64,000 nucleotides of DNA from a virus. The stretch lies in the IMG/VR virus record IMGVR_UViG_3300034069_000595, positions 27,478 through 91,477 of that record, one strand, 5' to 3'. The first letter of the stretch is position 1. Each line of letters begins with the position of its first letter. Below are positions 7,081 to 29,362 of this stretch, piece after piece. Below the pieces are notes generated by a model that worked only from the letters and a program-made list of their open reading frames with translations, was not told the DNA's origin and ran no database searches. A program made the position numbers and the translations under genes.

Positions 7081-7096
7081 GTCGTGACGGCACTAT
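7081..7096 (+). promoter_or_regulatory. Late promoter motif; predicted leaderless portal mRNA
   Basis: GTCGTGAC-GGC-A-CTA-T, 7 nt before ATG 7104; no SD. Confidence 0.75.
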
Positions 7097-7103
7097 CGCG
7101 GCT

Positions 7104-8744
7104 ATGACTGATATCGCCCTCGAAGTTGCGCACAACCCGAATGCTCCGAAAGATGAGCAGCAGGACGCTATGCGTATCGCGCAGAAAGCCGCGATGCCCT
7201 CGTCCGTCCCGGATATGCTCCCCCTTGTCCAGTACGTGGCCGAGCAGTACCGCGAGCAGGAGTTCGCCAAGTCGCTGTCGAAGCAGAACGTCATCCCCTT
7301 CCCGAGCCGCAGTGCCGAGATGGGCCAGATCGGTATGCAGTCGGTCTGGCTGGACGATCAGCGCACGAACATCCAGGGCGAATGGTACGAGCGGCCGACC
7401 GCATTCAGCTTCGACACCATGCGCACTATGGCGGATAACACCCCGATCCTGGCTTCGGTGATCATGACCCGGCAGCGCCAGATCAAGCGCTTCTGCCGCG
7501 CCAGCGCGGACGGCAAGGGGCCAGGTTTCCAGATCAAGCTGAAGGACGGCGGCGCCAAGGTTGGGGCCGAGGAGCAGAAGAACATTCAGCTCCTGCAGGG
7601 CTTCTTCACCAACTGCGGCTGGGAGAGCAAGCCACGCATCCGCCAACGCCTGCGCCGGGACAACTTCTCCGGCTTTATGGCGAAGCAGATCCGCGACAGC
7701 CTGATCATGGACAGCGCGCCGATCGAGATCGAGTGGAAGCGCGACAAGAGCAAGGGCATCGACGGCTTCTATGCCGTTGACGGCTCGACCATCAGGCTTT
7801 GCAACGAGGTTGGCTACCAGGGCGACGATGAGATCTACGCGCTCCAGGTGCTCGAAGGCCGCATTCGTGCCGCCTACACCTATGACGACCTGATCTACGT
7901 GCCTCGCAACCCGCGCTCCGATGTCCTGGCCGGCGGCTACGGCATGTCCGAGACCGAGCTGCTGATCAAGGTGGTGACGGGCTTCCTGAACGCTTTCACG
8001 TACAACACCAAATACTTCGACTCGAACGCCATCCCGAAGGGACTGTTGCACCTCACAGGCGACTACAGCCAGGAAGATCTGGCCGCGTTCAAGCGGCAGT
8101 GGAATGGGATGGTCAAAGGCATTAACAACGCCTGGACGATGCCGGTGATGGTCTCGAAGAACTCGGAGTCGAAAGTAGGTTTCGAAAACTTCAATGCCGA
8201 CGTGAACGAGATTATGTTCGGCAAGTGGATGACCTTCCTGACGTCAATCATCTGCGCCATTTACGGCATGGCGCCAGACGAAATCAACTTCGAAAGCTTC
8301 ACCACGGGTGCCAGTTCGCTCTCCGGAAGCGACACCGAGGAAAAGCTGATCAACTCGAAGGATAAGGGTCTACGCCCTCTCCTGTCCCACTACGAGGATC
8401 TGCTGAGCGACTACATCGTCGGGGAGTTTGGCGACAAGTACGTGTTCCGCTGGACCGGCCTCGACGAGAAGGATCCGAGTCAGCTCTGGGCTGAGGAAGT
8501 CGCCCTAAGCACCTGGAACGAAGGCCGAAAGGCGCGTGGCTGGGATGAGATCAAGGATGAGATCCTTGGCAATGCTCCGCTGAACCCGAACCTAATGGGC
8601 GTCTACATGCAGGCCAACATGCCTGATGCGGCGCCAGGTGACGATCAGGGTGACGGCGACGACAAGCCGCCGAAGCCGAAAAAGCCCGGCGATGACATGG
8701 CGAAGGCTTTCGGGCTGCCTCCCATCTACAAAGTCCAGCCGTAG
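7104..8744 (+). CDS. Phage portal protein
   Basis: HK97/Herelle-type portal features (VDGSTIR, RNPRSD..GYGMSETELL, F.SNAIPKGLL); first gene of the head module. Confidence 0.9.
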   Translation: MTDIALEVAHNPNAPKDEQQDAMRIAQKAAMPSSVPDMLPLVQYVAEQYREQEFAKSLSKQNVIPFPSRSAEMGQIGMQSVWLDDQRTNIQGEWYERPTAFSFDTMRTMADNTPILASVIMTRQRQIKRFCRASADGKGPGFQIKLKDGGAKVGAEEQKNIQLLQGFFTNCGWESKPRIRQRLRRDNFSGFMAKQIRDSLIMDSAPIEIEWKRDKSKGIDGFYAVDGSTIRLCNEVGYQGDDEIYALQVLEGRIRAAYTYDDLIYVPRNPRSDVLAGGYGMSETELLIKVVTGFLNAFTYNTKYFDSNAIPKGLLHLTGDYSQEDLAAFKRQWNGMVKGINNAWTMPVMVSKNSESKVGFENFNADVNEIMFGKWMTFLTSIICAIYGMAPDEINFESFTTGASSLSGSDTEEKLINSKDKGLRPLLSHYEDLLSDYIVGEFGDKYVFRWTGLDEKDPSQLWAEEVALSTWNEGRKARGWDEIKDEILGNAPLNPNLMGVYMQANMPDAAPGDDQGDGDDKPPKPKKPGDDMAKAFGLPPIYKVQP

Positions 8745-8776: not shown

Positions 8777-9109
8777 ATGAGCGTCAAAATCAAAACCGTT
8801 ACAGGCCGGACTCAGGCGCAGGGCGTATTCGTCATTGCTCTCGACCGAAATCACTCATCCATCCAGATTGATGCCGAGACTTCCGCGAAGGCTCAAGGTG
8901 GAACGCTGAAGCTTCAGTTCGTCTCGCCAGGCATGTCGGTTGCGAAGGATTTTCTCGGCGCCACTGGATCCGCTGTTGTGATCGACCTAGCAAAACCTTA
9001 CCCAGTCGTATTCAAAGACCTTAGCGTAGATCAGCTAATCGTCACTCCGATCGGGTTCGATGCTGACAAGTCCTTCAGCGTTGGCATCGTACTCGGCGGG
9101 CAGCTCTGA
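8777..9109 (+). CDS. Small beta-sandwich virion protein
   Basis: ORF coupled to the downstream SGNH gene. Confidence 0.55.
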   Translation: MSVKIKTVTGRTQAQGVFVIALDRNHSSIQIDAETSAKAQGGTLKLQFVSPGMSVAKDFLGATGSAVVIDLAKPYPVVFKDLSVDQLIVTPIGFDADKSFSVGIVLGGQL

Positions 9110-10509
9110 TGGGTTTCGCTAATCAGCAGGCCTTTGGTGCGGACACGCCATTCGCCCTCAAACTGATCGCCGATGCGACGTCGGACCTCGGCACGGTCGG
9201 CGACTCGCGCATCGCTCAGCACTTCACCGGCACGGCACCGAACATCATCCGCGAGCACCGAGGCATTGCCTACTGGCTGGGCCTGCTCACGGATGGCGCC
9301 GTACAGGTCCAGCAGGCCTTCGCAGGTGGCGTCGGTGGTGACACCACTCCGATGTGCTTCGTGCGGACGCCAGCCCTGTCAGCGCTCAAATCTGGCACGG
9401 TCCTGTCGCGGTTCGGCACCAACGATCCGACCAGCTCGACCTACACCGCGAGCTGGACCGTGGACATGGCGATCGCAGCGTCGATCGAGTACATGACCGC
9501 CATCATCACCAACTTCCTCGACAACGGACACCCGGTTGTCCACGTCTCCCAGACCCCGCGTGGTGGCGTGGATGGCCCCGACAAGGAACTGACCGGCGAC
9601 AAGCTCAAGCACTTCCTCGGCATCCTGAATTGGGAGCTGAACGTGCTGCCGACGCTACGACTCGGGCGATATCAGCGTAGCGTGGATGGTGTCGGTAACG
9701 CCTGGAAGCTGTGGCTCGACCCAGCCTCAACGCCAGATCGCCCGCTGCCACTGCCAGGCCTGACCGTTGACGGGCTACACGACACCCACACGGGTGCCTT
9801 CCTGGCGACGCTGTCCGTGCTGCCGTTCTACAAGCGCCGCTACGCCACTAAGGCGCACTTGCCGAACACGCCATCTCGCAGCTTGGCCTATTCGAGCCTC
9901 GCCGCTACGCCTGTGCCGCTCGGCGTGCTGACCCGCAACCCGACTATGCTAGGCACCGCCGGCAACATTCCTGCGTCCGTGAACGCCCTGCCTAGCAGTG
10001 TGCTGCCCGATACCTGGAACGCGGTTGCCGCCAGCTTCACCGGTGTCAAAACCAAGTTCGATATCGTTGACACGCCGGCTGGCAAGGGCATCAAGGTGAC
10101 CTTCAGCGGTAACGCGACCACCGCAGGGGCTTACCTCTCGATCGAGCCAGCAGCGGTGGTTGCCCTGGCCGACGTCGTGGCAGGCGACAAGCTTGAGGCG
10201 ATCGGGTGGATGAAGGCCGAGGGCAAGCTGTCTGCCTGCCTGCAGGCGGCGCCGGAGATCCGCTTCGTCCGCGGCGGCACCACCTCCTATGTTCGCGACG
10301 GGAACAAGTACACCACCGTGGTGTGCCCGCTCCTGATGGATGCGTTCGTGGGCAGCGGTGTCTCCGGCGTAACGCGCACTCCAACACTGGCGGTCGATAA
10401 AACCGAAACCGAGATCAAGCAACGGTTCACGATCTACCTGCAAAACGGGGTCGATCTGAACTTCTCGGTGACCATTGCCGCACATGGAACGAGGAAGATC
10501 TATTCCTGA
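9109..10509 (+). CDS. SGNH/GDSL hydrolase with C-terminal beta domain (putative virion esterase)
   Basis: Block I GDS, block III GTND, block V DGLH. Confidence 0.75.
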   Translation: MGFANQQAFGADTPFALKLIADATSDLGTVGDSRIAQHFTGTAPNIIREHRGIAYWLGLLTDGAVQVQQAFAGGVGGDTTPMCFVRTPALSALKSGTVLSRFGTNDPTSSTYTASWTVDMAIAASIEYMTAIITNFLDNGHPVVHVSQTPRGGVDGPDKELTGDKLKHFLGILNWELNVLPTLRLGRYQRSVDGVGNAWKLWLDPASTPDRPLPLPGLTVDGLHDTHTGAFLATLSVLPFYKRRYATKAHLPNTPSRSLAYSSLAATPVPLGVLTRNPTMLGTAGNIPASVNALPSSVLPDTWNAVAASFTGVKTKFDIVDTPAGKGIKVTFSGNATTAGAYLSIEPAAVVALADVVAGDKLEAIGWMKAEGKLSACLQAAPEIRFVRGGTTSYVRDGNKYTTVVCPLLMDAFVGSGVSGVTRTPTLAVDKTETEIKQRFTIYLQNGVDLNFSVTIAAHGTRKIYS

Positions 10510-10516
10510 CGCCCAT

Positions 10517-10532
10517 GTCGTGACGTGAAGAT
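10517..10532 (+). promoter_or_regulatory. Late promoter motif
   Basis: GTCGTGAC-GTG-A-AGA-T. Confidence 0.7.
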
Positions 10533-10538
10533 TCAACT

Positions 10539-10788
10539 ATTCAAGCCCGTGTATTCCCTGAAGTCTGACAGGGCCGGTGGGGGCTAAGCCGCCGGATACT
10601 TTTCACCTTGCATCGCTCAAGGTGCTGCCATGGCAACATGGTGAGCCAGACAAAGCGGAGAGCGCAGCCCCTCTGTCCCTCGGGATAGTCGTAAGGGGGG
10701 AAGTCCGGATTGTCGGGCGGTGACCCCATACTCCCCGATGGGATCACCGCCCGGGGCGCATCCCTCCAACCTGATCTAGGATCTGGCA
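10539..10788 (+). ncRNA. Candidate structured ncRNA / long structured 5' leader
   Basis: At least seven helices including a GCAA tetraloop hairpin and a 10-bp GC stem; no convincing ORF; preceded by the late motif. Confidence 0.5.
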
Positions 10789-11943
10789 GTGTCCCTTCTC
10801 CTCGACATCACCCCTGTCAGTCAGCACGCTACCGACGCGGCTCTCGAATTCCTGTTCAAATCCACCCATGACCACGACAAGGGCATCTGGAACCCGCACG
10901 AGTCTGTGCTGATCCGGCGTCTGGTCGAGCTTTTCAGCGACCGCGGCCTCGATCGCCTCGAACACGTCAAACAGCAGATCATCGCGTGGGAGGCCGGTGA
11001 GCACCATAAGCCTGGCGCACCGGTGCCGACGAACGTTCCTGGCATGATGACGCGTTGGACCGAAGCCGAGCTTGGACTGGTCCGTGTCTACCTCGAAGCA
11101 CTCCCGCCAGGCGCATGGACCCTTGCCGACCACATGATGGCGGTCGACTACGTCGTGCAGCGTTACCTGCCGGCCGAGGAGATGAAGACCGAAGCCGAGT
11201 GGATGAGCACCCGAGCAGCGCTGATGGGCAAGGTGCAGGCCAACATGGCGGCCGCGGCCACCCCGCAGCAGGCGGACAAGATCCTCGCAGCCCTGCCTTC
11301 GACCGAAGCCGCGGCGAACCACCAGTTCAAGCTCAACGCGCAGCAGCAGTCGGTGATGGCGTTCGGCAACGCCCGGGCTGCCGAGAATGTGCGCGCCTTG
11401 GCCGAGGACGTTCGCCACCGGATGCGCAACACCATCATGCAGCACCTGGAGCAGCAGCAGACGTTGCCACCAGGCGTGCCCGGCGAGGCGCTACAGAGCA
11501 AGCTGGTCGATCAGTTCGGCACCCTGAACCGAGACTGGCGCAGGATCGCCGTCACTGAGGCTGGCGAGTGCCAGACACAGGGTTTCATCGCCAGCCTGAA
11601 GCCGGGCACGAAGGTCCGCCGCGTCGAGATGTACGCTACGGCGTGCAACTTCTGCAAAAAGATCCACGGCAAGATCGCTACCGTCGTCTCTCCGGACAAG
11701 CCCGATAAGGACTGGGAGAACGAGATATGGGTCGGCAAGAACAACATCGGCCGATCGGCATCGCCCCGCAAGCGCGTTGGCGATACGTTGGTCGATCGCG
11801 AGCCAGAGGAGATGTGGGCGCTTCCCGCCGGCCTGGCTCACCCACATTGCCGCGGGCGCTGGGTTCTGGTCGAAGAACTTGCTCAGGAAGGCGATGATCC
11901 CGACTTTGCGGCATGGCTTCGCGAGACGCTTGCCGGCGAATAG
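10789..11943 (+). CDS. Head morphogenesis protein, Mu gpF/SPP1 gp7-like
   Basis: RIAVTEAG, ACNFC and HPHCRG motifs; position between portal and protease. Confidence 0.8.
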   Translation: MSLLLDITPVSQHATDAALEFLFKSTHDHDKGIWNPHESVLIRRLVELFSDRGLDRLEHVKQQIIAWEAGEHHKPGAPVPTNVPGMMTRWTEAELGLVRVYLEALPPGAWTLADHMMAVDYVVQRYLPAEEMKTEAEWMSTRAALMGKVQANMAAAATPQQADKILAALPSTEAAANHQFKLNAQQQSVMAFGNARAAENVRALAEDVRHRMRNTIMQHLEQQQTLPPGVPGEALQSKLVDQFGTLNRDWRRIAVTEAGECQTQGFIASLKPGTKVRRVEMYATACNFCKKIHGKIATVVSPDKPDKDWENEIWVGKNNIGRSASPRKRVGDTLVDREPEEMWALPAGLAHPHCRGRWVLVEELAQEGDDPDFAAWLRETLAGE

Positions 11944-12289: not shown

Positions 12290-12305
12290 GTCGTGACGGC
12301 ACTGT
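12290..12305 (+). promoter_or_regulatory. Late promoter motif; predicted leaderless protease mRNA
   Basis: GTCGTGAC-GGC-A-CTG-T; predicted +1 is the A of ATG 12312. Confidence 0.75.
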
Positions 12306-12311
12306 AGCGGC

Positions 12312-13196
12312 ATGAACCAAGACGAACAGCTTCTTGCTGACATCCCCGATTTCTTAAGCATCTCCGAGATGCTGAAAGCTACGCCTTCTGAGGAAGGTGG
12401 GGAGCGCTACATCTATCTGGAAGCCAGCAACGAGGGCGTCGACCAGCAGGGCGAGCGCGTTCTTGCCAAGGCACTGGAAGAAAGCGCGAGCCACTTCCTC
12501 AAGTTCGGCAACATCGACCTCGACCACTACACCATCATCGGTCAGCGGATGGGCCTGGCTAACCCCATGGCCTACGAGGTCGGCCGCCCGGTCGACGTGA
12601 CCGTTCGTGGTGATCGCACCTTCGTCAAGGCCCAGCTGTATCGCGGCACCGGCGAACTCGCGAAGAACGCGAACATGGTCTGGGAGTCGATGACTCAGAT
12701 CAGCCCGCCGGCGCGCTGGTATCCGTCCGTGGGCGGGTCAGTGCTGGCTAAGAGCGTGGCTGTTGACCCGAGCGGCGGCGGCAAGATCGGCGTCGTTACC
12801 AAGGTGCGCTGGACGAACATCGCCCTGAGCCGCACGCCGGTGAACCAACACCTGCCAGCTGCTGGCACTGTTCCCCTCGCCACGTTCGCCAAATCCTTCG
12901 GTGGCCTGGTGATGAACAAGTCCCTCGCTGCGGGCTACGGCTCCGACATGGCGACGCTGTTTGGTGGTGATGCGATCCGCATGCAGTCCCTGGATAGCAC
13001 ACCGCAAGGTTACTTCGAGTTTCGCGATGAGATCGCTGGCGCTGTCAGCAGTCGTGAAGCCAATAATCAGACCCGAGATGGTTTGATCGCGTTTTCAACG
13101 CACAAATTCAATCTGTCGGCTCCTGAAGCTGCGGAGTGGGTGGATCGCTTCCTGAGCGATTTGAAAAAACATCAATCTAACCGGAGCAATCCATGA
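12312..13196 (+). CDS. Prohead protease
   Basis: ASNEGVDQQGE, IDLDH, SVGG catalytic-Ser region, IALSRTPVN; canonical position. Confidence 0.85.
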   Translation: MNQDEQLLADIPDFLSISEMLKATPSEEGGERYIYLEASNEGVDQQGERVLAKALEESASHFLKFGNIDLDHYTIIGQRMGLANPMAYEVGRPVDVTVRGDRTFVKAQLYRGTGELAKNANMVWESMTQISPPARWYPSVGGSVLAKSVAVDPSGGGKIGVVTKVRWTNIALSRTPVNQHLPAAGTVPLATFAKSFGGLVMNKSLAAGYGSDMATLFGGDAIRMQSLDSTPQGYFEFRDEIAGAVSSREANNQTRDGLIAFSTHKFNLSAPEAAEWVDRFLSDLKKHQSNRSNP

Positions 13197-13867: not shown

Positions 13868-15328
13868 ATGGACTTCCTCAACAACCCCAACACCTCCGGC
13901 GAAGGCATTGCCGGTGATATGGGCCAAGCGGACCTGGTAGCGCTGCAGAAGTCTCTGCAAGCGGGCTACGGCTCCGACATGAACGACCTGAGCGGTGGTT
14001 CGGCCCTGCGTATCCAGTCTCTGGATACCACCCTGCAGGCCACTGTGCAGGACAACCAGCACTTCGCGCTGTTCAACGCTCTGCCGAAGCCCAAGGCGAC
14101 TGCGGTGCTGGATGAATGGACCGAGCAGTCTGACATCGGCGGCTTCCTGGGCGACAGCTTCAACGACCAGGATGGTGCTGCGTCTGAGACCAATGGTCAG
14201 TACGACCGCCGCATCGGTCGTGTGAAGTACATGACCACCTACCGCAAAATCCCGATCGTTCTGCAAAGCCAGAACAACCTGGCCGACGCGGTTTCCCTGG
14301 AGACCATCAACGGCTCCAAGCAGCTGCTGTCCTCGATCGAGTTCAGCCTGTTCGAAGGTAACGATCAGGTCACCCCGAAATCCTTCGCCGGCATTCGCCA
14401 GCAGATCGAAAGCCTGGGCAGCCCCGACCACGTGATCGACATGCGCGGCTCGTCCCTGGACAGCGCCGATCCGATCATGAAGGCCGCTGAGACCGTGTTC
14501 GGCTTCGGCAACTTCGGCAAGCTGACCGACATCTACATGCCTCCGAGCGTGCAGAGCGACCTGAACACCAACCTCGACCCGGCTTTCCGTGTCGCGTTGG
14601 ACAACAGCCCGAACAGCATCTCGTACGGCACCCACGTCCGCGCGATCCGCACCTCCTGGGGTGACATCGCCACGAAGAACGACGTGTTCATCCGTGACGA
14701 GAAGATGCAGAAGCCGTTCGAGATCCGTAACGGGATCCACGCAGCTGCCGCTGTGGCGAACGCTGCGTACAAGCCTGTCGGCCTGACCGCTGTGGCTGCT
14801 GCTGGCCCTGCTGACTCGTACTGGGAAGCGTCTCACGCTGGTGCCTACGTGTACTACGTGACCGGCATCACCGAGAAGGGCGAGACTCAGGTCGTTGCGG
14901 CAACTGGCGGCGCTGTCACCGTCGCTGCTGGCGGCAAGGTCACCCTGTCCATCACCCCGTCTGCCTCCGGCATCGAGACTGGCTACGTGATCTATCGCGG
15001 TCGCAAGGATGGCACCGCTGCCCTGACCGACGTTCGCGAGATGGTTCGCGTGCCGAAGAACTCCGGCGGCAACACCGTGTACGTGGACCTCAACCGCGAG
15101 ATCCCTGGCACCACCTGCTCCTACGCCCTGAACCTGTCGGCCAGCGACCACGCCATTGCCTGGCGCCAGTACCTGCCGATGATGAAGATCCCGATGGCAG
15201 CGGTGAACAGCCCGATCATCCCTTGGCTGCAAATGATCTGCGGTTACCTGCGGATCACCAAGCGCAACCAGCACGTGGTTCTGAAGAACATCGTGCCTCG
15301 TGGCGCACTCTGGAAGCCTTTCGGCTGA
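13868..15328 (+). CDS. Major capsid protein (Herelleviridae-like)
   Basis: KSLQAGYG...GGSALRIQSLD resembles phage K-type KSFQTGYG...AGALRREILD; strongly biased codons. Confidence 0.92.
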   Translation: MDFLNNPNTSGEGIAGDMGQADLVALQKSLQAGYGSDMNDLSGGSALRIQSLDTTLQATVQDNQHFALFNALPKPKATAVLDEWTEQSDIGGFLGDSFNDQDGAASETNGQYDRRIGRVKYMTTYRKIPIVLQSQNNLADAVSLETINGSKQLLSSIEFSLFEGNDQVTPKSFAGIRQQIESLGSPDHVIDMRGSSLDSADPIMKAAETVFGFGNFGKLTDIYMPPSVQSDLNTNLDPAFRVALDNSPNSISYGTHVRAIRTSWGDIATKNDVFIRDEKMQKPFEIRNGIHAAAAVANAAYKPVGLTAVAAAGPADSYWEASHAGAYVYYVTGITEKGETQVVAATGGAVTVAAGGKVTLSITPSASGIETGYVIYRGRKDGTAALTDVREMVRVPKNSGGNTVYVDLNREIPGTTCSYALNLSASDHAIAWRQYLPMMKIPMAAVNSPIIPWLQMICGYLRITKRNQHVVLKNIVPRGALWKPFG

Positions 15329-18698: not shown

Positions 18699-18746
18699 AG
18701 CATCGCGTCACGAGGGAGCGCCGACAAACCGTCGTGACGCCATCAT
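18699..18746. promoter_or_regulatory. Back-to-back divergent late promoters
   Basis: CTCGTGAC-GCG-A-TGC-T (minus, 18699-18714) and GTCGTGAC-GCC-A-TCA-T (plus, 18731-18746). Confidence 0.75.
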
Positions 18747-18752
18747 CGGCGC

Positions 18753-19577
18753 ATGATCTCAATTATCCGGCCGCTTCCGATCGGCAACGCGCTTCGAATC
18801 TTCGTCGAGCCCCCAGCAGGCGCGAAGTATTGGCGCGTCCTGCGCAAAGCCTCCGACACATTCGATGGTGGTCCGGACGATGACTACGCCCTGAAGGTCT
18901 ACGAGGGCGATGAGAAGTCGTTCGTGGATGCCGCCTCGCTGCCGAATGAGCAGATGGCGTTCTACAAGCCGTTCTACCGGATCGGCTCGGCATGGGTTCC
19001 TGGCGAAACAGGCTATGGAACGCCGGCCTCCACCTTCGAAGACCACAGCACAGATGTGATCGCCATTCTGCGCAGTCGCCTTGAGGCTGGCATGCGGGTC
19101 GAGTGTGAGCGCGGCAACTTCGCAACCGAGCTGGGCTACATCCAGGTGTTCACCGCGCCCCCCTCGCTGGGCAACGTCGAGCTGCCGGTAGTCACCGTCG
19201 AGCTGGACCATGCCGGCCCCGGCGATCGCGCGATCGGTGAGGACATCATCGGAGATGAGTTCGACGATGACGGCTGGATGGATTCCGAAGGCTGGCTGGA
19301 GAACGTCACCGCCACCATCGTGGCCTGGTCGCTGAACAGCGATGAGCGCATCGAGCTGAGAAAGGCGTTGCGCCGCATCCTTCTGGCGAATCTGCCGGTC
19401 CTCAATGACGCTGGTGTCCAGCAAGTAAGCTTCAGCTTTACAGATATGAATGCAGTCGGCGGCGAGTTTGACGCCCCGATGTACCAGGTCATCTGCAATT
19501 TCTCATGTATCGCACCAGCTCGCGTCAGTGGCCGCGTCGGTTCGATCGAGGATGTCGAGGTCACCGTTCGCGACTGA
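18753..19577 (+). CDS. Putative tail terminator / tail completion protein
   Basis: Position before the sheath; LPVVTVEL..., SLNSDERIELR pattern. Confidence 0.5.
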   Translation: MISIIRPLPIGNALRIFVEPPAGAKYWRVLRKASDTFDGGPDDDYALKVYEGDEKSFVDAASLPNEQMAFYKPFYRIGSAWVPGETGYGTPASTFEDHSTDVIAILRSRLEAGMRVECERGNFATELGYIQVFTAPPSLGNVELPVVTVELDHAGPGDRAIGEDIIGDEFDDDGWMDSEGWLENVTATIVAWSLNSDERIELRKALRRILLANLPVLNDAGVQQVSFSFTDMNAVGGEFDAPMYQVICNFSCIAPARVSGRVGSIEDVEVTVRD

Positions 19578-27410: not shown

Positions 27411-28183
27411 GCGAGTTCAAGAAGGGGCGCGTTGTCGCCATCCACCCAGAAGATCACTCCTGCGATATCGTCATGCTGGGCGATGGCTCGCGCCTGGCCG
27501 GCGTGCAGATCCAGTCCCAGTCGGCCAGCACCAATACGGGCCTAAACGACCTGGTGGCTCCGGCTGCTGCGCCAGACGGCAATAAGTGGAACGCCAGCCA
27601 GAAGACTGGCCGCGATATCCTTGCCATCGTCGGGTGGTGCGAGGGCGTGCCGTTCGTGAACGGCTTCCTGTTCCCGCAAATCTGCCAGATGACCTTCCCC
27701 GAGGCGAACCGGAAGATCGATCGACACGCTTCGGACTTCTACCAAACGATCGATGCCAAGGGTAACGTCGAGTGGTCTCACCCGAGCGGCACCTACCTGC
27801 GCATTGGCGAGAGCCCTGCGCACGAGGATCTGACCGGCAAGGACTTCGACAAGAAGTGGGCCATCAAGAACAACACCGGGACGGCGCCGCACGTGCACCT
27901 GACGGTGGCCAGTGCCGGTTCGGTCGTCGCTACAATCGATATCGCACCATCTGGAGCCATCACGGTGACGGGCGCATCGCTGATGGCGACGCTCACCGGG
28001 GCAGCCACCTTGATCGCGCCTGGTGGGGTCACCGTCGATACGCCAGACGCGCACTTCACCGGCAACATCAAGGCCGATGGCAATATCACCGACCTGGTGC
28101 GCAGCATGGCGGCGGATCGCCTGATCTACAACAGCCACACCAACCCGAACGGCGGCAGCAGCGCGCCTCCGCAGCAGATGTGA
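27407..28183 (+). CDS. Baseplate spike (gpV/gp45-like)
   Basis: OB-fold N-terminus (KGRVVAIHPEDHSCDI), beta-helix repeats, C-terminal YNSHTN; ATGA overlap. Confidence 0.8.
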   Translation: MSEFKKGRVVAIHPEDHSCDIVMLGDGSRLAGVQIQSQSASTNTGLNDLVAPAAAPDGNKWNASQKTGRDILAIVGWCEGVPFVNGFLFPQICQMTFPEANRKIDRHASDFYQTIDAKGNVEWSHPSGTYLRIGESPAHEDLTGKDFDKKWAIKNNTGTAPHVHLTVASAGSVVATIDIAPSGAITVTGASLMATLTGAATLIAPGGVTVDTPDAHFTGNIKADGNITDLVRSMAADRLIYNSHTNPNGGSSAPPQQM

Positions 28184-28185
28184 TC

Positions 28186-28201
28186 GTCGTGACGCCATCA
28201 T
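28186..28201 (+). promoter_or_regulatory. Late promoter motif; predicted leaderless mRNA
   Basis: GTCGTGAC-GCC-A-TCA-T; predicted +1 is the A of ATG 28208. Confidence 0.75.
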
Positions 28202-28207
28202 GGCGTC

Positions 28208-29362
28208 ATGGACCTATCTACGCCTGCATCTCAGAAAGCCGAGGAGTGTCCCATCACCTTTGTGATGGATGACGACTCCGCCGGCACGTCCGAAGAAATG
28301 ACCCTCCTGATCCGTCCGGAGGAGCTTTCGATCGGGTTCCCAAGCCGCCTGTCTGTGAACCAGACGCTGGGCGGCGCGTGGGCGGACAGCTTCGGCGAAG
28401 GGCTTGAGGAGGGAACCTTCTCGGGCACCCTCGGGTGGCGCGCCACCAGCAACGACAGCGGCGGCACTGAGCGCCTGGTGAACCTGAAGAACTTCGCCTA
28501 CTCCGACTGGCATGCACGGCGAGCAGCTGCGGTGGCAAAGGGCAACGACCCGGCCATGGTGCGCTTGCAGCTGGTGGACACGCTGAACAACTACTCGCGG
28601 GTCATCGCGCCCCGGGTGTTCGAGCTGAAGCGCAGCAAGAGCCGGCCGCTGCTGGCGCAGTACCGGTTCAACTTCGTCATGCTGTCGCGCGACCTGACGG
28701 GCAAGGATCTGCTCCAGTCGGACAGCGCGCTCGGCGGCTTCCTCGGCACCATCGGCTCGTGGATCGACAGCTTTACCACCTCGATCAACAACATCACCGA
28801 CCGCATTCGGACCGCGTACCGCTGGATCGATAAGACCATCATCACGCCGGTCAAAGCCTTCGTGGCGAAAACGATGCAGATCTACAAAGCCGTCAACAAC
28901 CTGGTCACCGCGGGCGTCGGGATCATTCGGCAGGTCGGCAGCATTGCGACACTGGCTACCTCCGCAATTACGAACGTGCTGCGAACCGCTGCGCTGGCAG
29001 TCAACATCCCCAACATCGCCAAGGCGGCGATCATGAACGTCGTGCGTGAGTACACCAACATCTTCTGTCTGCTGCGCAACGCCCGCGGCCTGCTGAGCTA
29101 CGAGGATTATTCGGACATCTACGGCGCCTCGAACTGCTCCTCGACGTCGGGTGGTCGCTCGATCTCGATCTACTCAGGATCGACCAACAACACGTTTGCC
29201 GCCATCTCGAAGCAGGACGCCTCGCCGATCGTGGTCACTCAGGGCGCATCGAACAGCCTCAAATCACTCGCCAGCGCGGACCTGGTCACCACCAGCCTGT
29301 CCTCGACCACGATCAACGGAAACCTCTCGGTAGCGAACGCCGGTATCACGGTGACCGCATGA
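28208..29362 (+). CDS. Baseplate/tube-initiator protein
   Basis: LLIRPEEL...QTLGGAWADSFGEG motif of tube-initiator-type proteins. Confidence 0.6.
   Translation: MDLSTPASQKAEECPITFVMDDDSAGTSEEMTLLIRPEELSIGFPSRLSVNQTLGGAWADSFGEGLEEGTFSGTLGWRATSNDSGGTERLVNLKNFAYSDWHARRAAAVAKGNDPAMVRLQLVDTLNNYSRVIAPRVFELKRSKSRPLLAQYRFNFVMLSRDLTGKDLLQSDSALGGFLGTIGSWIDSFTTSINNITDRIRTAYRWIDKTIITPVKAFVAKTMQIYKAVNNLVTAGVGIIRQVGSIATLATSAITNVLRTAALAVNIPNIAKAAIMNVVREYTNIFCLLRNARGLLSYEDYSDIYGASNCSSTSGGRSISIYSGSTNNTFAAISKQDASPIVVTQGASNSLKSLASADLVTTSLSSTTINGNLSVANAGITVTA

Follow-up and report, generated by a model that had tools for sequence, protein, structure and literature searches.

The 279-nt non-coding gap (positions 10510-10788) separating two open reading frames (ORFs) in a 64,000-nt stretch of viral DNA, positions 27,478 to 91,477 of the IMG/VR record IMGVR_UViG_3300034069_000595 and here called the window, encodes, as the comparison of related sequences indicates, a conserved and compact structured RNA of ~170-240 nt featuring two to three pseudoknots. 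The virus record is 93.6 kb long, corresponding to a ~94-kb phage. The RNA has no match in Rfam 15 and is classed as a new family. It is rather probably a free-standing, stable and late RNA acting in trans, most likely by binding a protein. A first-pass annotation of the window had proposed a highly structured plus-strand RNA at this site, and covariation among 27 distinct homologues bears this out. Coordinates are those of the window, unless a locus is named.

By blastn the region was detected in the Pseudomonas phages Touem01, Jeremy and Dolphis and in the Aeromonas phage ST4. All four feature a 224-279-nt gap 5' of a homologue of the 384-amino acid (aa) product of the downstream ORF, the upstream gene being the portal gene or an inserted accessory gene; the gap found at the same place in the Bordetella phage PHB04 is only 21 nt long. 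Loci (L numbers below) were gathered by using the 384-aa protein as query (15 IMG/VR, 80 metagenome and 15 genome loci), and the covariance model R1, made up by 16 sequences, located the RNA in 28 of them, with scores of 57-171 bits. A second model, R2, matched the RNA in the Yersinia phage fHe-Yen8-01 (92.6 bits) and the Enterobacter phage phiT5282EW (71.4 bits). In the E. coli phage ECML-606-1 the layout is the same and so, judged from its sequence without a model run, evidently is the RNA. Approximately 30 related phages and prophages carry the RNA, including isolates on Pseudomonas, Aeromonas, Yersinia and Enterobacter, and one copy per genome was found in the genomes searched. The components of the RNA in the window are the following (PK, pseudoknot):

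10539-10706, plus strand: conserved RNA core, as spanned by the covariance model; 163 bits with both R1 and R2, 57-171 bits in ~30 other loci
10544-10548, plus strand: 5' strand AGCCC of the probable PK3, pairing with the H2 loop at 10581-10585; 86% of cells paired
10556-10573, plus strand: hairpin H1, CCCUG/CAGGG (10556-10560/10569-10573), with loop residues 10563-10567 (GUCUG) engaged in PK1; covariation
10574-10595, plus strand: hairpin H2, 7-bp stem ccggtgg/ccgccgg (10574-10580/10589-10595); covariation
10604-10624, plus strand: hairpin H3, caccttg/caaggtg (10604-10610/10618-10624), with loop residues 10613-10617 (UCGCU) engaged in PK2; 7/7 pairs change on both sides
10627-10642, plus strand: hairpin H4 (10627-10632/10637-10642) with a GCAA tetraloop of the GNRA type (10633-10636); 6/6 pairs change on both sides
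10647-10658, plus strand: docking single strand, made up by CAGAC (10647-10651, PK1), AA, and AGCGG (10654-10658, PK2); covariation
10663-10666, plus strand: near-invariant unpaired CGCA; at least 90% identity in 26 distinct sequences
10668-10699, plus strand: P5 (10668-10672/10695-10699) around the variable hairpin P6 (10675-10679/10682-10686); covariation
10703-10759, plus strand: terminal hairpin P7, a 10-bp stem (10714-10723/10744-10753) extended by GUCC/GGGC; a hairpin follows the core in 28/28 members

Compensatory changes on both sides were found in 43 of the 49 pairs of the structure, the outcome of the covariation test on related intergenic regions that the first-pass annotation had suggested. 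In the 27 distinct sequences 91.3% of the cells are paired, vs. 69.8% in shuffled alignments; the covariation score is 0.574 vs. 0.196, a value reached by 0/500 shuffles, and does not exceed 0.129 in controls in which partners were slid by 1-3 columns. G-U pairs outnumber A-C mismatches in helix cells (108 vs. 29), hence the RNA is read from the plus strand. The fold of the single sequence is unexceptional (z = -1.74 for the plus and -1.69 for the minus strand); since these values are uninformative on either strand, the case rests on the comparison with relatives and not on folding energy.

Five of the helices drawn in the first-pass annotation (H1, H2, H3, H4 and P5) are upheld by covariation. 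Both sides change in 5/5 pairs of H1 (94.6% of cells paired), 6/7 pairs of H2 (99.5%), 5/6 pairs of P5 and 3/3 pairs at the base of P6. The inner helix predicted within P5 is real, though about two bases out of register: the conserved pairing is GUCCC/GGGAU (10675-10679/10682-10686), and not ctgtcc/ggatag. A gtat/atac helix, drawn at first pass as closing H1 and H2, is paired in 34/104 cells only, which is the level expected by chance. The H4 tetraloop is of the GNRA type in most members; in the ST4 subclade another loop takes its place. P6 varies in length from ~10 to ~45 nt, and the P5/P6 region carries a conserved 3' bulge, UAGUCG (10686-10691), in which G10688, C10690 and G10691 are near-invariant. 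Together with CGCA and the invariant AA (10586-10587) of the H2 loop (GGGCUAAG, which also holds the PK3 strand 10581-10585), these residues account for nine unpaired positions at least 90% identical. The 10-bp stem of P7 had also been recognized at first pass; the sequence of the hairpin differs in each of the 28 members examined, with free energies of the flanks ranging from -15 to -36 kcal/mol.

The strand located ~75 nt downstream of H1 is complementary to the H1 loop, and the stretch found 2 nt further on is complementary to the loop of H3, as spotted by eye. In PK1 (10563-10567 with 10647-10651) 5/5 pairs change on both sides and 91.1% of cells are paired, the variants being GUCUG/CAGAC, GCCUG/CAGGC, UCCUG/CAGGA, ACCCG/CGGGU, GCCUU/AAGGC, GCUGU/ACAGC, GCCCAC/GUGGGU and GCCUC/GAGGC. 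In PK2 (10613-10617 with 10654-10658) the figures are 5/5 and 94.5%, and variants include UCGCU/AGCGG, CGGCU/AGCUG, CGCUGGU/ACCAGCG, GCCAUU/AAUGGC and UUGCC/GGCAG. Cognate duplexes are more stable than non-cognate ones for both PK1 (-8.2 vs. -5.2 kcal/mol) and PK2 (-6.8 vs. -4.5 kcal/mol), and for neither was a permutation as good found among 10000. The model to which sequences were aligned (A5) is made up by six nested helices; as PK1 and PK2 are absent from it, their covariation is not an artefact of fitting. The 5' end of the RNA probably pairs with the H2 loop as well: PK3 (AGCCC with GGGCU) is near-invariant, one of its pairs changes on both sides, and 286/10000 permutations are as good. 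Two other partners of the 5' GCCC suggested by RNAalifold, namely CGGG of P6 and GG past P7, were discarded on inspection of larger alignments, in which P6 is a local hairpin and GGGGC is in a local pairing at the P7 base. A scan of all column pairs revealed no extra covarying helix, its signals being noise contributed by columns of conserved G and U.

The RNA family is restricted to one clade of ~85-95-kb myovirus-like phages and prophages of Proteobacteria; the Jeremy annotation describes a temperate phage of ~95 kb, with large terminase, tail sheath and integrase genes. The RNA was not found in PHB04, the whole genome of which was searched, nor in phage Mecenats66. Locus L019 has the 384-aa gene and no significant match to the RNA, and no copy was detectable at ~60 loci with more distant homologues of the gene. 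When R2 was run on 87 RNA-less loci, the only matches, in L072, L079 and L108, scored 13 bits, lacked the H1 and H2 loops, and were judged spurious. A pattern scan of IMG/VR for other gene contexts gave 30 stretches, of which 8 are true and only 2 new, and all 8 lie between a portal gene and a 384-aa gene. Divergent members gave no blastn matches in cultured phages, and neither did the copy of the E. coli phage in a search of 5,426 E. coli genomes.

The whole window gave no match to Rfam 15 (4227 covariance models) at gathering thresholds, a check also named in the first-pass annotation. When the 10300-11000 interval was searched at E <= 10, only fragments on the P7 hairpin were retrieved, resembling Ms1 (18.4 bits, gathering threshold 162) and mir-8799 (22 bits, gathering threshold 46). 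The loci of eleven relatives, searched at E <= 1, gave only transfer RNAs (tRNAs) and unrelated weak matches. Neither ARAGORN nor the Rfam transfer-messenger RNA (tmRNA) models found a tmRNA in the window, and ARAGORN found no tRNA gene either; both tools detected the tmRNA residing in the same slot of L058. The CCAGAC and GGAAGUCCGG segments resemble the 5' part of M1 RNA, and long-range pseudoknots are common to RNase P RNA and the new RNA, which lacks the partner strand of P4, the pseudoknot made by regions CR-I and CR-V of RNase P RNA. The echo of RNase P RNA heard at first pass is not sustained: RNase P models matched nothing on the plus strand of the window and, on the minus strand, RNaseP-T only, over P7 (11.6 bits, E 5.5); the CCAGAC segment pairs with the H1 loop; and the CR-I-like AAGUCC, which pairs locally at the P7 base, is not conserved in the family, being replaced by GCACC in L013, L015, L018, L020 and L043. 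A full-text search of the literature, by phage names and topic, returned no account of the RNA; a 2023 IMG/VR survey of 10,006 candidate structured RNAs (PMC10690425, consulted in part) may contain it. The relevant GenBank regions are unannotated or mis-annotated.

The relationship of the RNA to its flanking genes varies among members. In Jeremy, ST4 and L010 the RNA comes directly after the stop codon of the portal gene; inserted accessory genes precede it in the window, Touem01 and L006, where the RNA carries a promoter motif of its own, which argues that it is not tied to the portal gene. On the 3' side, a run of U residues after P7, reminiscent of an intrinsic terminator, was found in at least eight members (Touem01, L012, L013, L015, L018, L034, L036 and L016). 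No U-tract follows P7 in the ST4 group, the enterobacterial phages, or the window and the relatives closest to it. In Jeremy, Dolphis, L023, L018, L034, L036 and L016 the promoter motif GTCGTGA is found past the RNA, ~14 nt ahead of the ATG of the 384-aa gene, and tRNA genes are interposed in two members, tRNA-Met in L016 (2346-2421), tRNA-Met and tRNA-Pro in L036 (1175-1896). The RNA hence does not hold the constant position of a 5' untranslated region (UTR). It is equally conserved in phages with an intervening motif, terminator or tRNA gene and in the others, and its conserved function is therefore unlikely to be cis control of the 384-aa gene. The gene in turn occurs without the RNA in PHB04, L019 and the ~60 more distant loci.

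Other stable RNA genes occupy the slot in relatives missing the RNA, namely tRNA-Arg (L017:65-141), tRNA-Glu (L031:828-903), tRNA-Pro and tRNA-Gly (L035:1083-1299), and tRNA-Met (L076:1103-1178). A permuted tmRNA of the betaproteobacterial type is found there in L058 (13-408; metagenome contig JACCDN010248741.1), ~110-170 nt 5' of the 384-aa homologue; it scores 154.8 bits with RF04321 and 136.3 bits with RF01850, and the tag predicted by ARAGORN is ANDDVFAVRLAA. Given these genes, and the uncoupling of the RNA from its neighbours, the simplest reading is that of a free-standing stable RNA gene in a slot which collects such genes. Further small RNAs may reside in the slot. Past the terminator of the RNA, L034 (1400-2000), L036 (900-1170) and L016 (2100-2340) share conserved non-coding sequence, including a GCCGGATAGCGTAACCGGC hairpin, and L034:1920-1980 gave a sub-threshold match to the anti-hemB small RNA model (40 bits vs. 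a gathering threshold of 49.5).

Upstream of the RNA the window features a repeated sequence:

10517-10524, plus strand: late-promoter-like motif GTCGTGAC, 22 nt 5' of the RNA core; enrichment and position

In the window GTCGTGAC is found in 11 copies vs. 3.05 expected, a number reached in 0/100 shuffles; 10 copies are on the plus strand, mostly intergenic or just past terminators. Copies located 14-15 nt before an ATG lacking a Shine-Dalgarno (SD) sequence precede the portal (7081-7103) and protease (12290-12311) genes and two other genes (18731-18755 and 28186-28210). These data fit a late promoter giving very short leaders. Should GTCGTGAC be a -10-like late promoter, leaders would be shorter than 10 nt and late messenger RNAs nearly leaderless. 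The own late promoter of the RNA, as proposed at first pass, is thus supported as far as the repeated late-type motif is concerned; its promoter role is suggested by enrichment and position. A copy of the motif is located 21-26 nt 5' of the RNA in nine relatives (L006, Touem01, L007-9, L021, L013, L018, L020). Upstream motif and terminator are both clear in L013, L018 and Touem01; L020 has the motif and a weaker U-run, and the window phage has the motif and no U-tract after P7.

Expression was monitored in assembled contigs. Run X5, a groundwater metatranscriptome, contains one contig of 214 nt, 98% identical, which spans 10452-10665 and takes in two thirds of the RNA along with the promoter motif and the end of the upstream lipase-like gene; no other contig was found in the 1.7 kb examined, flanking genes included. 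This is weak support for expression.

In the reading that we favour, of a late RNA acting in trans, transcription would start from GTCGTGAC at 10517-10524 late in infection. In the window phage, as no U-tract follows P7, it would probably continue into the 384-aa gene; in relatives the RNA would be a separate unit closed by a terminator. In the fold, which covariation supports, hairpins H1-H4 precede the single strand that pairs with the H1 and H3 loops; next come P5/P6 with its bulge, and P7, which would serve as terminator or as protector of the 3' end. The rigid core, with its multiple pseudoknots and few invariant unpaired bases, hints at a partner that is recognized specifically, and would present its invariant nucleotides to it, most likely a phage or host protein. 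The RNA would not act as a switch on the downstream gene.

Several observations weigh against this reading. The late promoter is a role suggested for GTCGTGAC by enrichment and position, and the metatranscriptome contig starts 5' of the motif and could be DNA carry-over. The protein partner is a guess: the Jeremy annotation shows no RNA-binding or RNA-modifying gene, and neither an RNA polymerase nor an RNA-processing enzyme hinting at one. About half of the members, including the window, have an SD and a start codon directly after the RNA and no terminator, and in these the 5' leader of the 384-aa gene physically comprises the RNA. Every member found has the RNA immediately 5' of this gene and in the same orientation, which would also fit a cis role.

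The latter observations are the strength of the best of the alternatives, which we nevertheless regard as rather unlikely, namely that the RNA is a cis-acting leader, a riboswitch-like or protein-binding 5' UTR element which sets read-through at P7 or translation initiation of the 384-aa gene. Only P7 and an SD precede the start codon in the window, L006, L007-9, ST4, L027, L024, L028, L043 and the enterobacterial phages. A pseudoknotted core with near-invariant unpaired nucleotides is a typical setting of ligand pockets, and P7, a terminator in certain members, is a plain hairpin elsewhere, so that the expression platform, a terminator or an SD-proximal hairpin, would vary by member, as it does in riboswitch classes. 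Such a leader is hard to reconcile with the members described above, in which a promoter motif or tRNA genes lie 3' of an equally conserved RNA, or with the many relatives carrying the gene without it. Moreover, no consistent anti-terminator pairing between core and P7 was noticed when flanks were viewed by eye, with no systematic search: one is possible in L034, none in L013, L016 or the window. The first-pass annotation had proposed a translational switch, based on a long-range gccaga/tctggc pairing which would cover the spacer between SD and GTG. Covariation does not support this helix: cognate and non-cognate duplexes are alike (-6.4 vs. -6.2 kcal/mol), 3296/10000 permutations are as good (p ~0.33), in the closest relative, L006, the pairing is gone (-4.5 kcal/mol vs. 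-10.8 in the window), and its 5' half is occupied by PK1. As the pairing is not conserved the switch falls, the more so since a motif, a terminator or tRNA genes intervene in seven members.

That the RNA belongs to a new functional class and is not a passive stable RNA is unlikely; it would be either a new ribozyme or a multimer which assembles by itself, its covarying 'pseudoknots' being contacts between molecules, and acts late in infection, in association with portal or virion or in the role of an anti-defence decoy. The narrower proposal of a catalytic, self-cleaving RNA, which would cut the late polycistronic transcript between portal or accessory and head genes, or act on another RNA, is very unlikely. 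The ~170-nt core with its pseudoknots and few invariant unpaired nucleotides is within the range of size and complexity of glmS-type ribozymes, and in Jeremy, ST4 and L010, where the RNA starts a few nt past the portal stop without a motif of its own, processing would be useful. None of the ribozyme families in Rfam 15 matched the RNA, no candidate cleavage site was identified, and nothing in the data requires catalysis.

Even less probability is given to an assembly or packaging RNA analogous to the packaging RNA (pRNA) of phi29, in which the loop-strand pairings would connect different molecules in a ring or multimer on the portal or prohead. The RNA gene is in the head module, next to the portal gene and under putative late control; covariation in PK1 and PK2 would be the same for intra- and intermolecular pairing, and the 'pseudoknot' of phi29 pRNA proved to be intermolecular. 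Homo-oligomers are formed by the large phage-associated RNAs GOLLD and ROOL (bioRxiv 10.1101/2024.12.08.627333, consulted in part). The analogy, raised at first pass, found no positive evidence: the Rfam model of phi29-type pRNA did not match; an ordinary large terminase is encoded by Jeremy, according to its annotation, and by Mecenats66 (PMC9503643); and PHB04 and Mecenats66, both close relatives, do without the RNA in head assembly.

That the region holds no functional RNA, its conservation being due only to DNA-level signals or to a small protein encoded on one of the strands, deserves next to no credence: an annotated 81-aa ORF in Touem01 and a 68-aa ORF in the window overlap the element on the minus strand, but ORFs over it vary in frame, extent and strand among homologues, L026 has none, peptide matches are short and local (58% over 71 aa, window vs. 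L006), and 43 pairs with compensatory changes and the excess of G-U over A-C point to a plus-strand RNA. The absence of a convincing ORF noted at first pass is thereby confirmed, and no conserved peptide was found over the region. The Touem01 ORF (Touem01_00051, L001:3088-3333, minus strand), a hypothetical protein antisense to the RNA, has probably been called in error.

In kind, the RNA comes closest to GOLLD and ROOL, phi29 pRNA and the stable RNAs of phage T4, none of which is a relative. GOLLD and ROOL, like the new RNA, are encoded by phages or prophages, have pseudoknotted folds supported by covariation, no ORF and no known function, and often adjoin tRNA genes. They are much larger (~580-800 nt vs. 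~170-240 nt), their Rfam models gave no match, and they are mostly from Firmicutes, rumen and lake samples, whereas the new RNA is found in proteobacterial phages; oligomerization is reported for them and hypothetical for the new RNA. As the phi29 pRNA, the new RNA is a small structured phage RNA with covarying loop pairings which hold together a structure or an assembly. The phi29 pRNA gene is early and located at the genome end, that of the new RNA next to the portal gene within the head module; phi29-like phages are small podoviruses, those carrying the new RNA ~90-kb phages of the myovirus type with a standard large terminase. The lack of any sequence or structure match to the pRNA model, and the existence of close relatives without the new RNA, set the two further apart. 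In T4, the 'species 1 and 2' RNAs (rnaC, rnaD) are stable non-coding RNAs of unknown function encoded in a tRNA gene cluster; the new RNA similarly shares its slot with tRNA and tmRNA genes, in relatives, but is folded more elaborately, with 2-3 pseudoknots, and homology is not expected.

New RNA folds of such complexity are rare, and past ones proved to be ribozymes, riboswitches or RNA-protein machines. The presence of the RNA in cultured phages of E. coli, Yersinia, Enterobacter, Aeromonas and Pseudomonas makes it amenable to direct deletion, probing and pull-down. Residing in a slot for tRNA and tmRNA genes, it provides a testable case for why phages carry stable RNAs other than tRNAs, a question unanswered for GOLLD and ROOL and, to our knowledge, for the T4 species 1 and 2 RNAs.

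The surroundings of the RNA are those of a head module, with genes for the portal (7104-8744), the protease (12312-13196) and the major head protein (13868-15328). The upstream ORF (9109-10509) encodes an SGNH/GDSL lipase-like protein (PHROG lipase, E 1e-48), the downstream ORF (10789-11943) the 384-aa protein, with a GTG start at 10789:

10778-10791, plus strand: SD-like AGGA and GTG start of the 384-aa virion protein gene; ORF list, homologues 33-90% identical at >100 loci

Homologues are annotated as 'particle associated protein' in the Yersinia phage fHe-Yen8-01 and as 'putative minor head protein' in Mecenats66; 'minor head protein' is used also in Thermus phages. The gpF-like label applied to this protein at first pass, plausible from position, was not supported by similarity: the protein has no Pfam match at E <= 10 and no PDB sequence match better than E 0.09, and its AlphaFold model (pLDDT 75.5) no Foldseek match in PDB at E <= 0.001. 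The model is a long helical bundle with a small beta domain, and invariant C..C and H.P.CRG residues are located near the C-terminus. In fHe-Yen8-01 (L155:2484-2503) and ECML-606-1 (L157:2484-2505) the conserved N-terminus of the homologue begins 5' of the annotated ATG. ATT or ATC codons are located there 6-8 nt past a strong SD (AGGAGA or AAGGAGA), with no in-frame ATG, GTG or TTG, which suggests that translation may start at a non-canonical AUU or AUC codon, and that the annotated genes are truncated.

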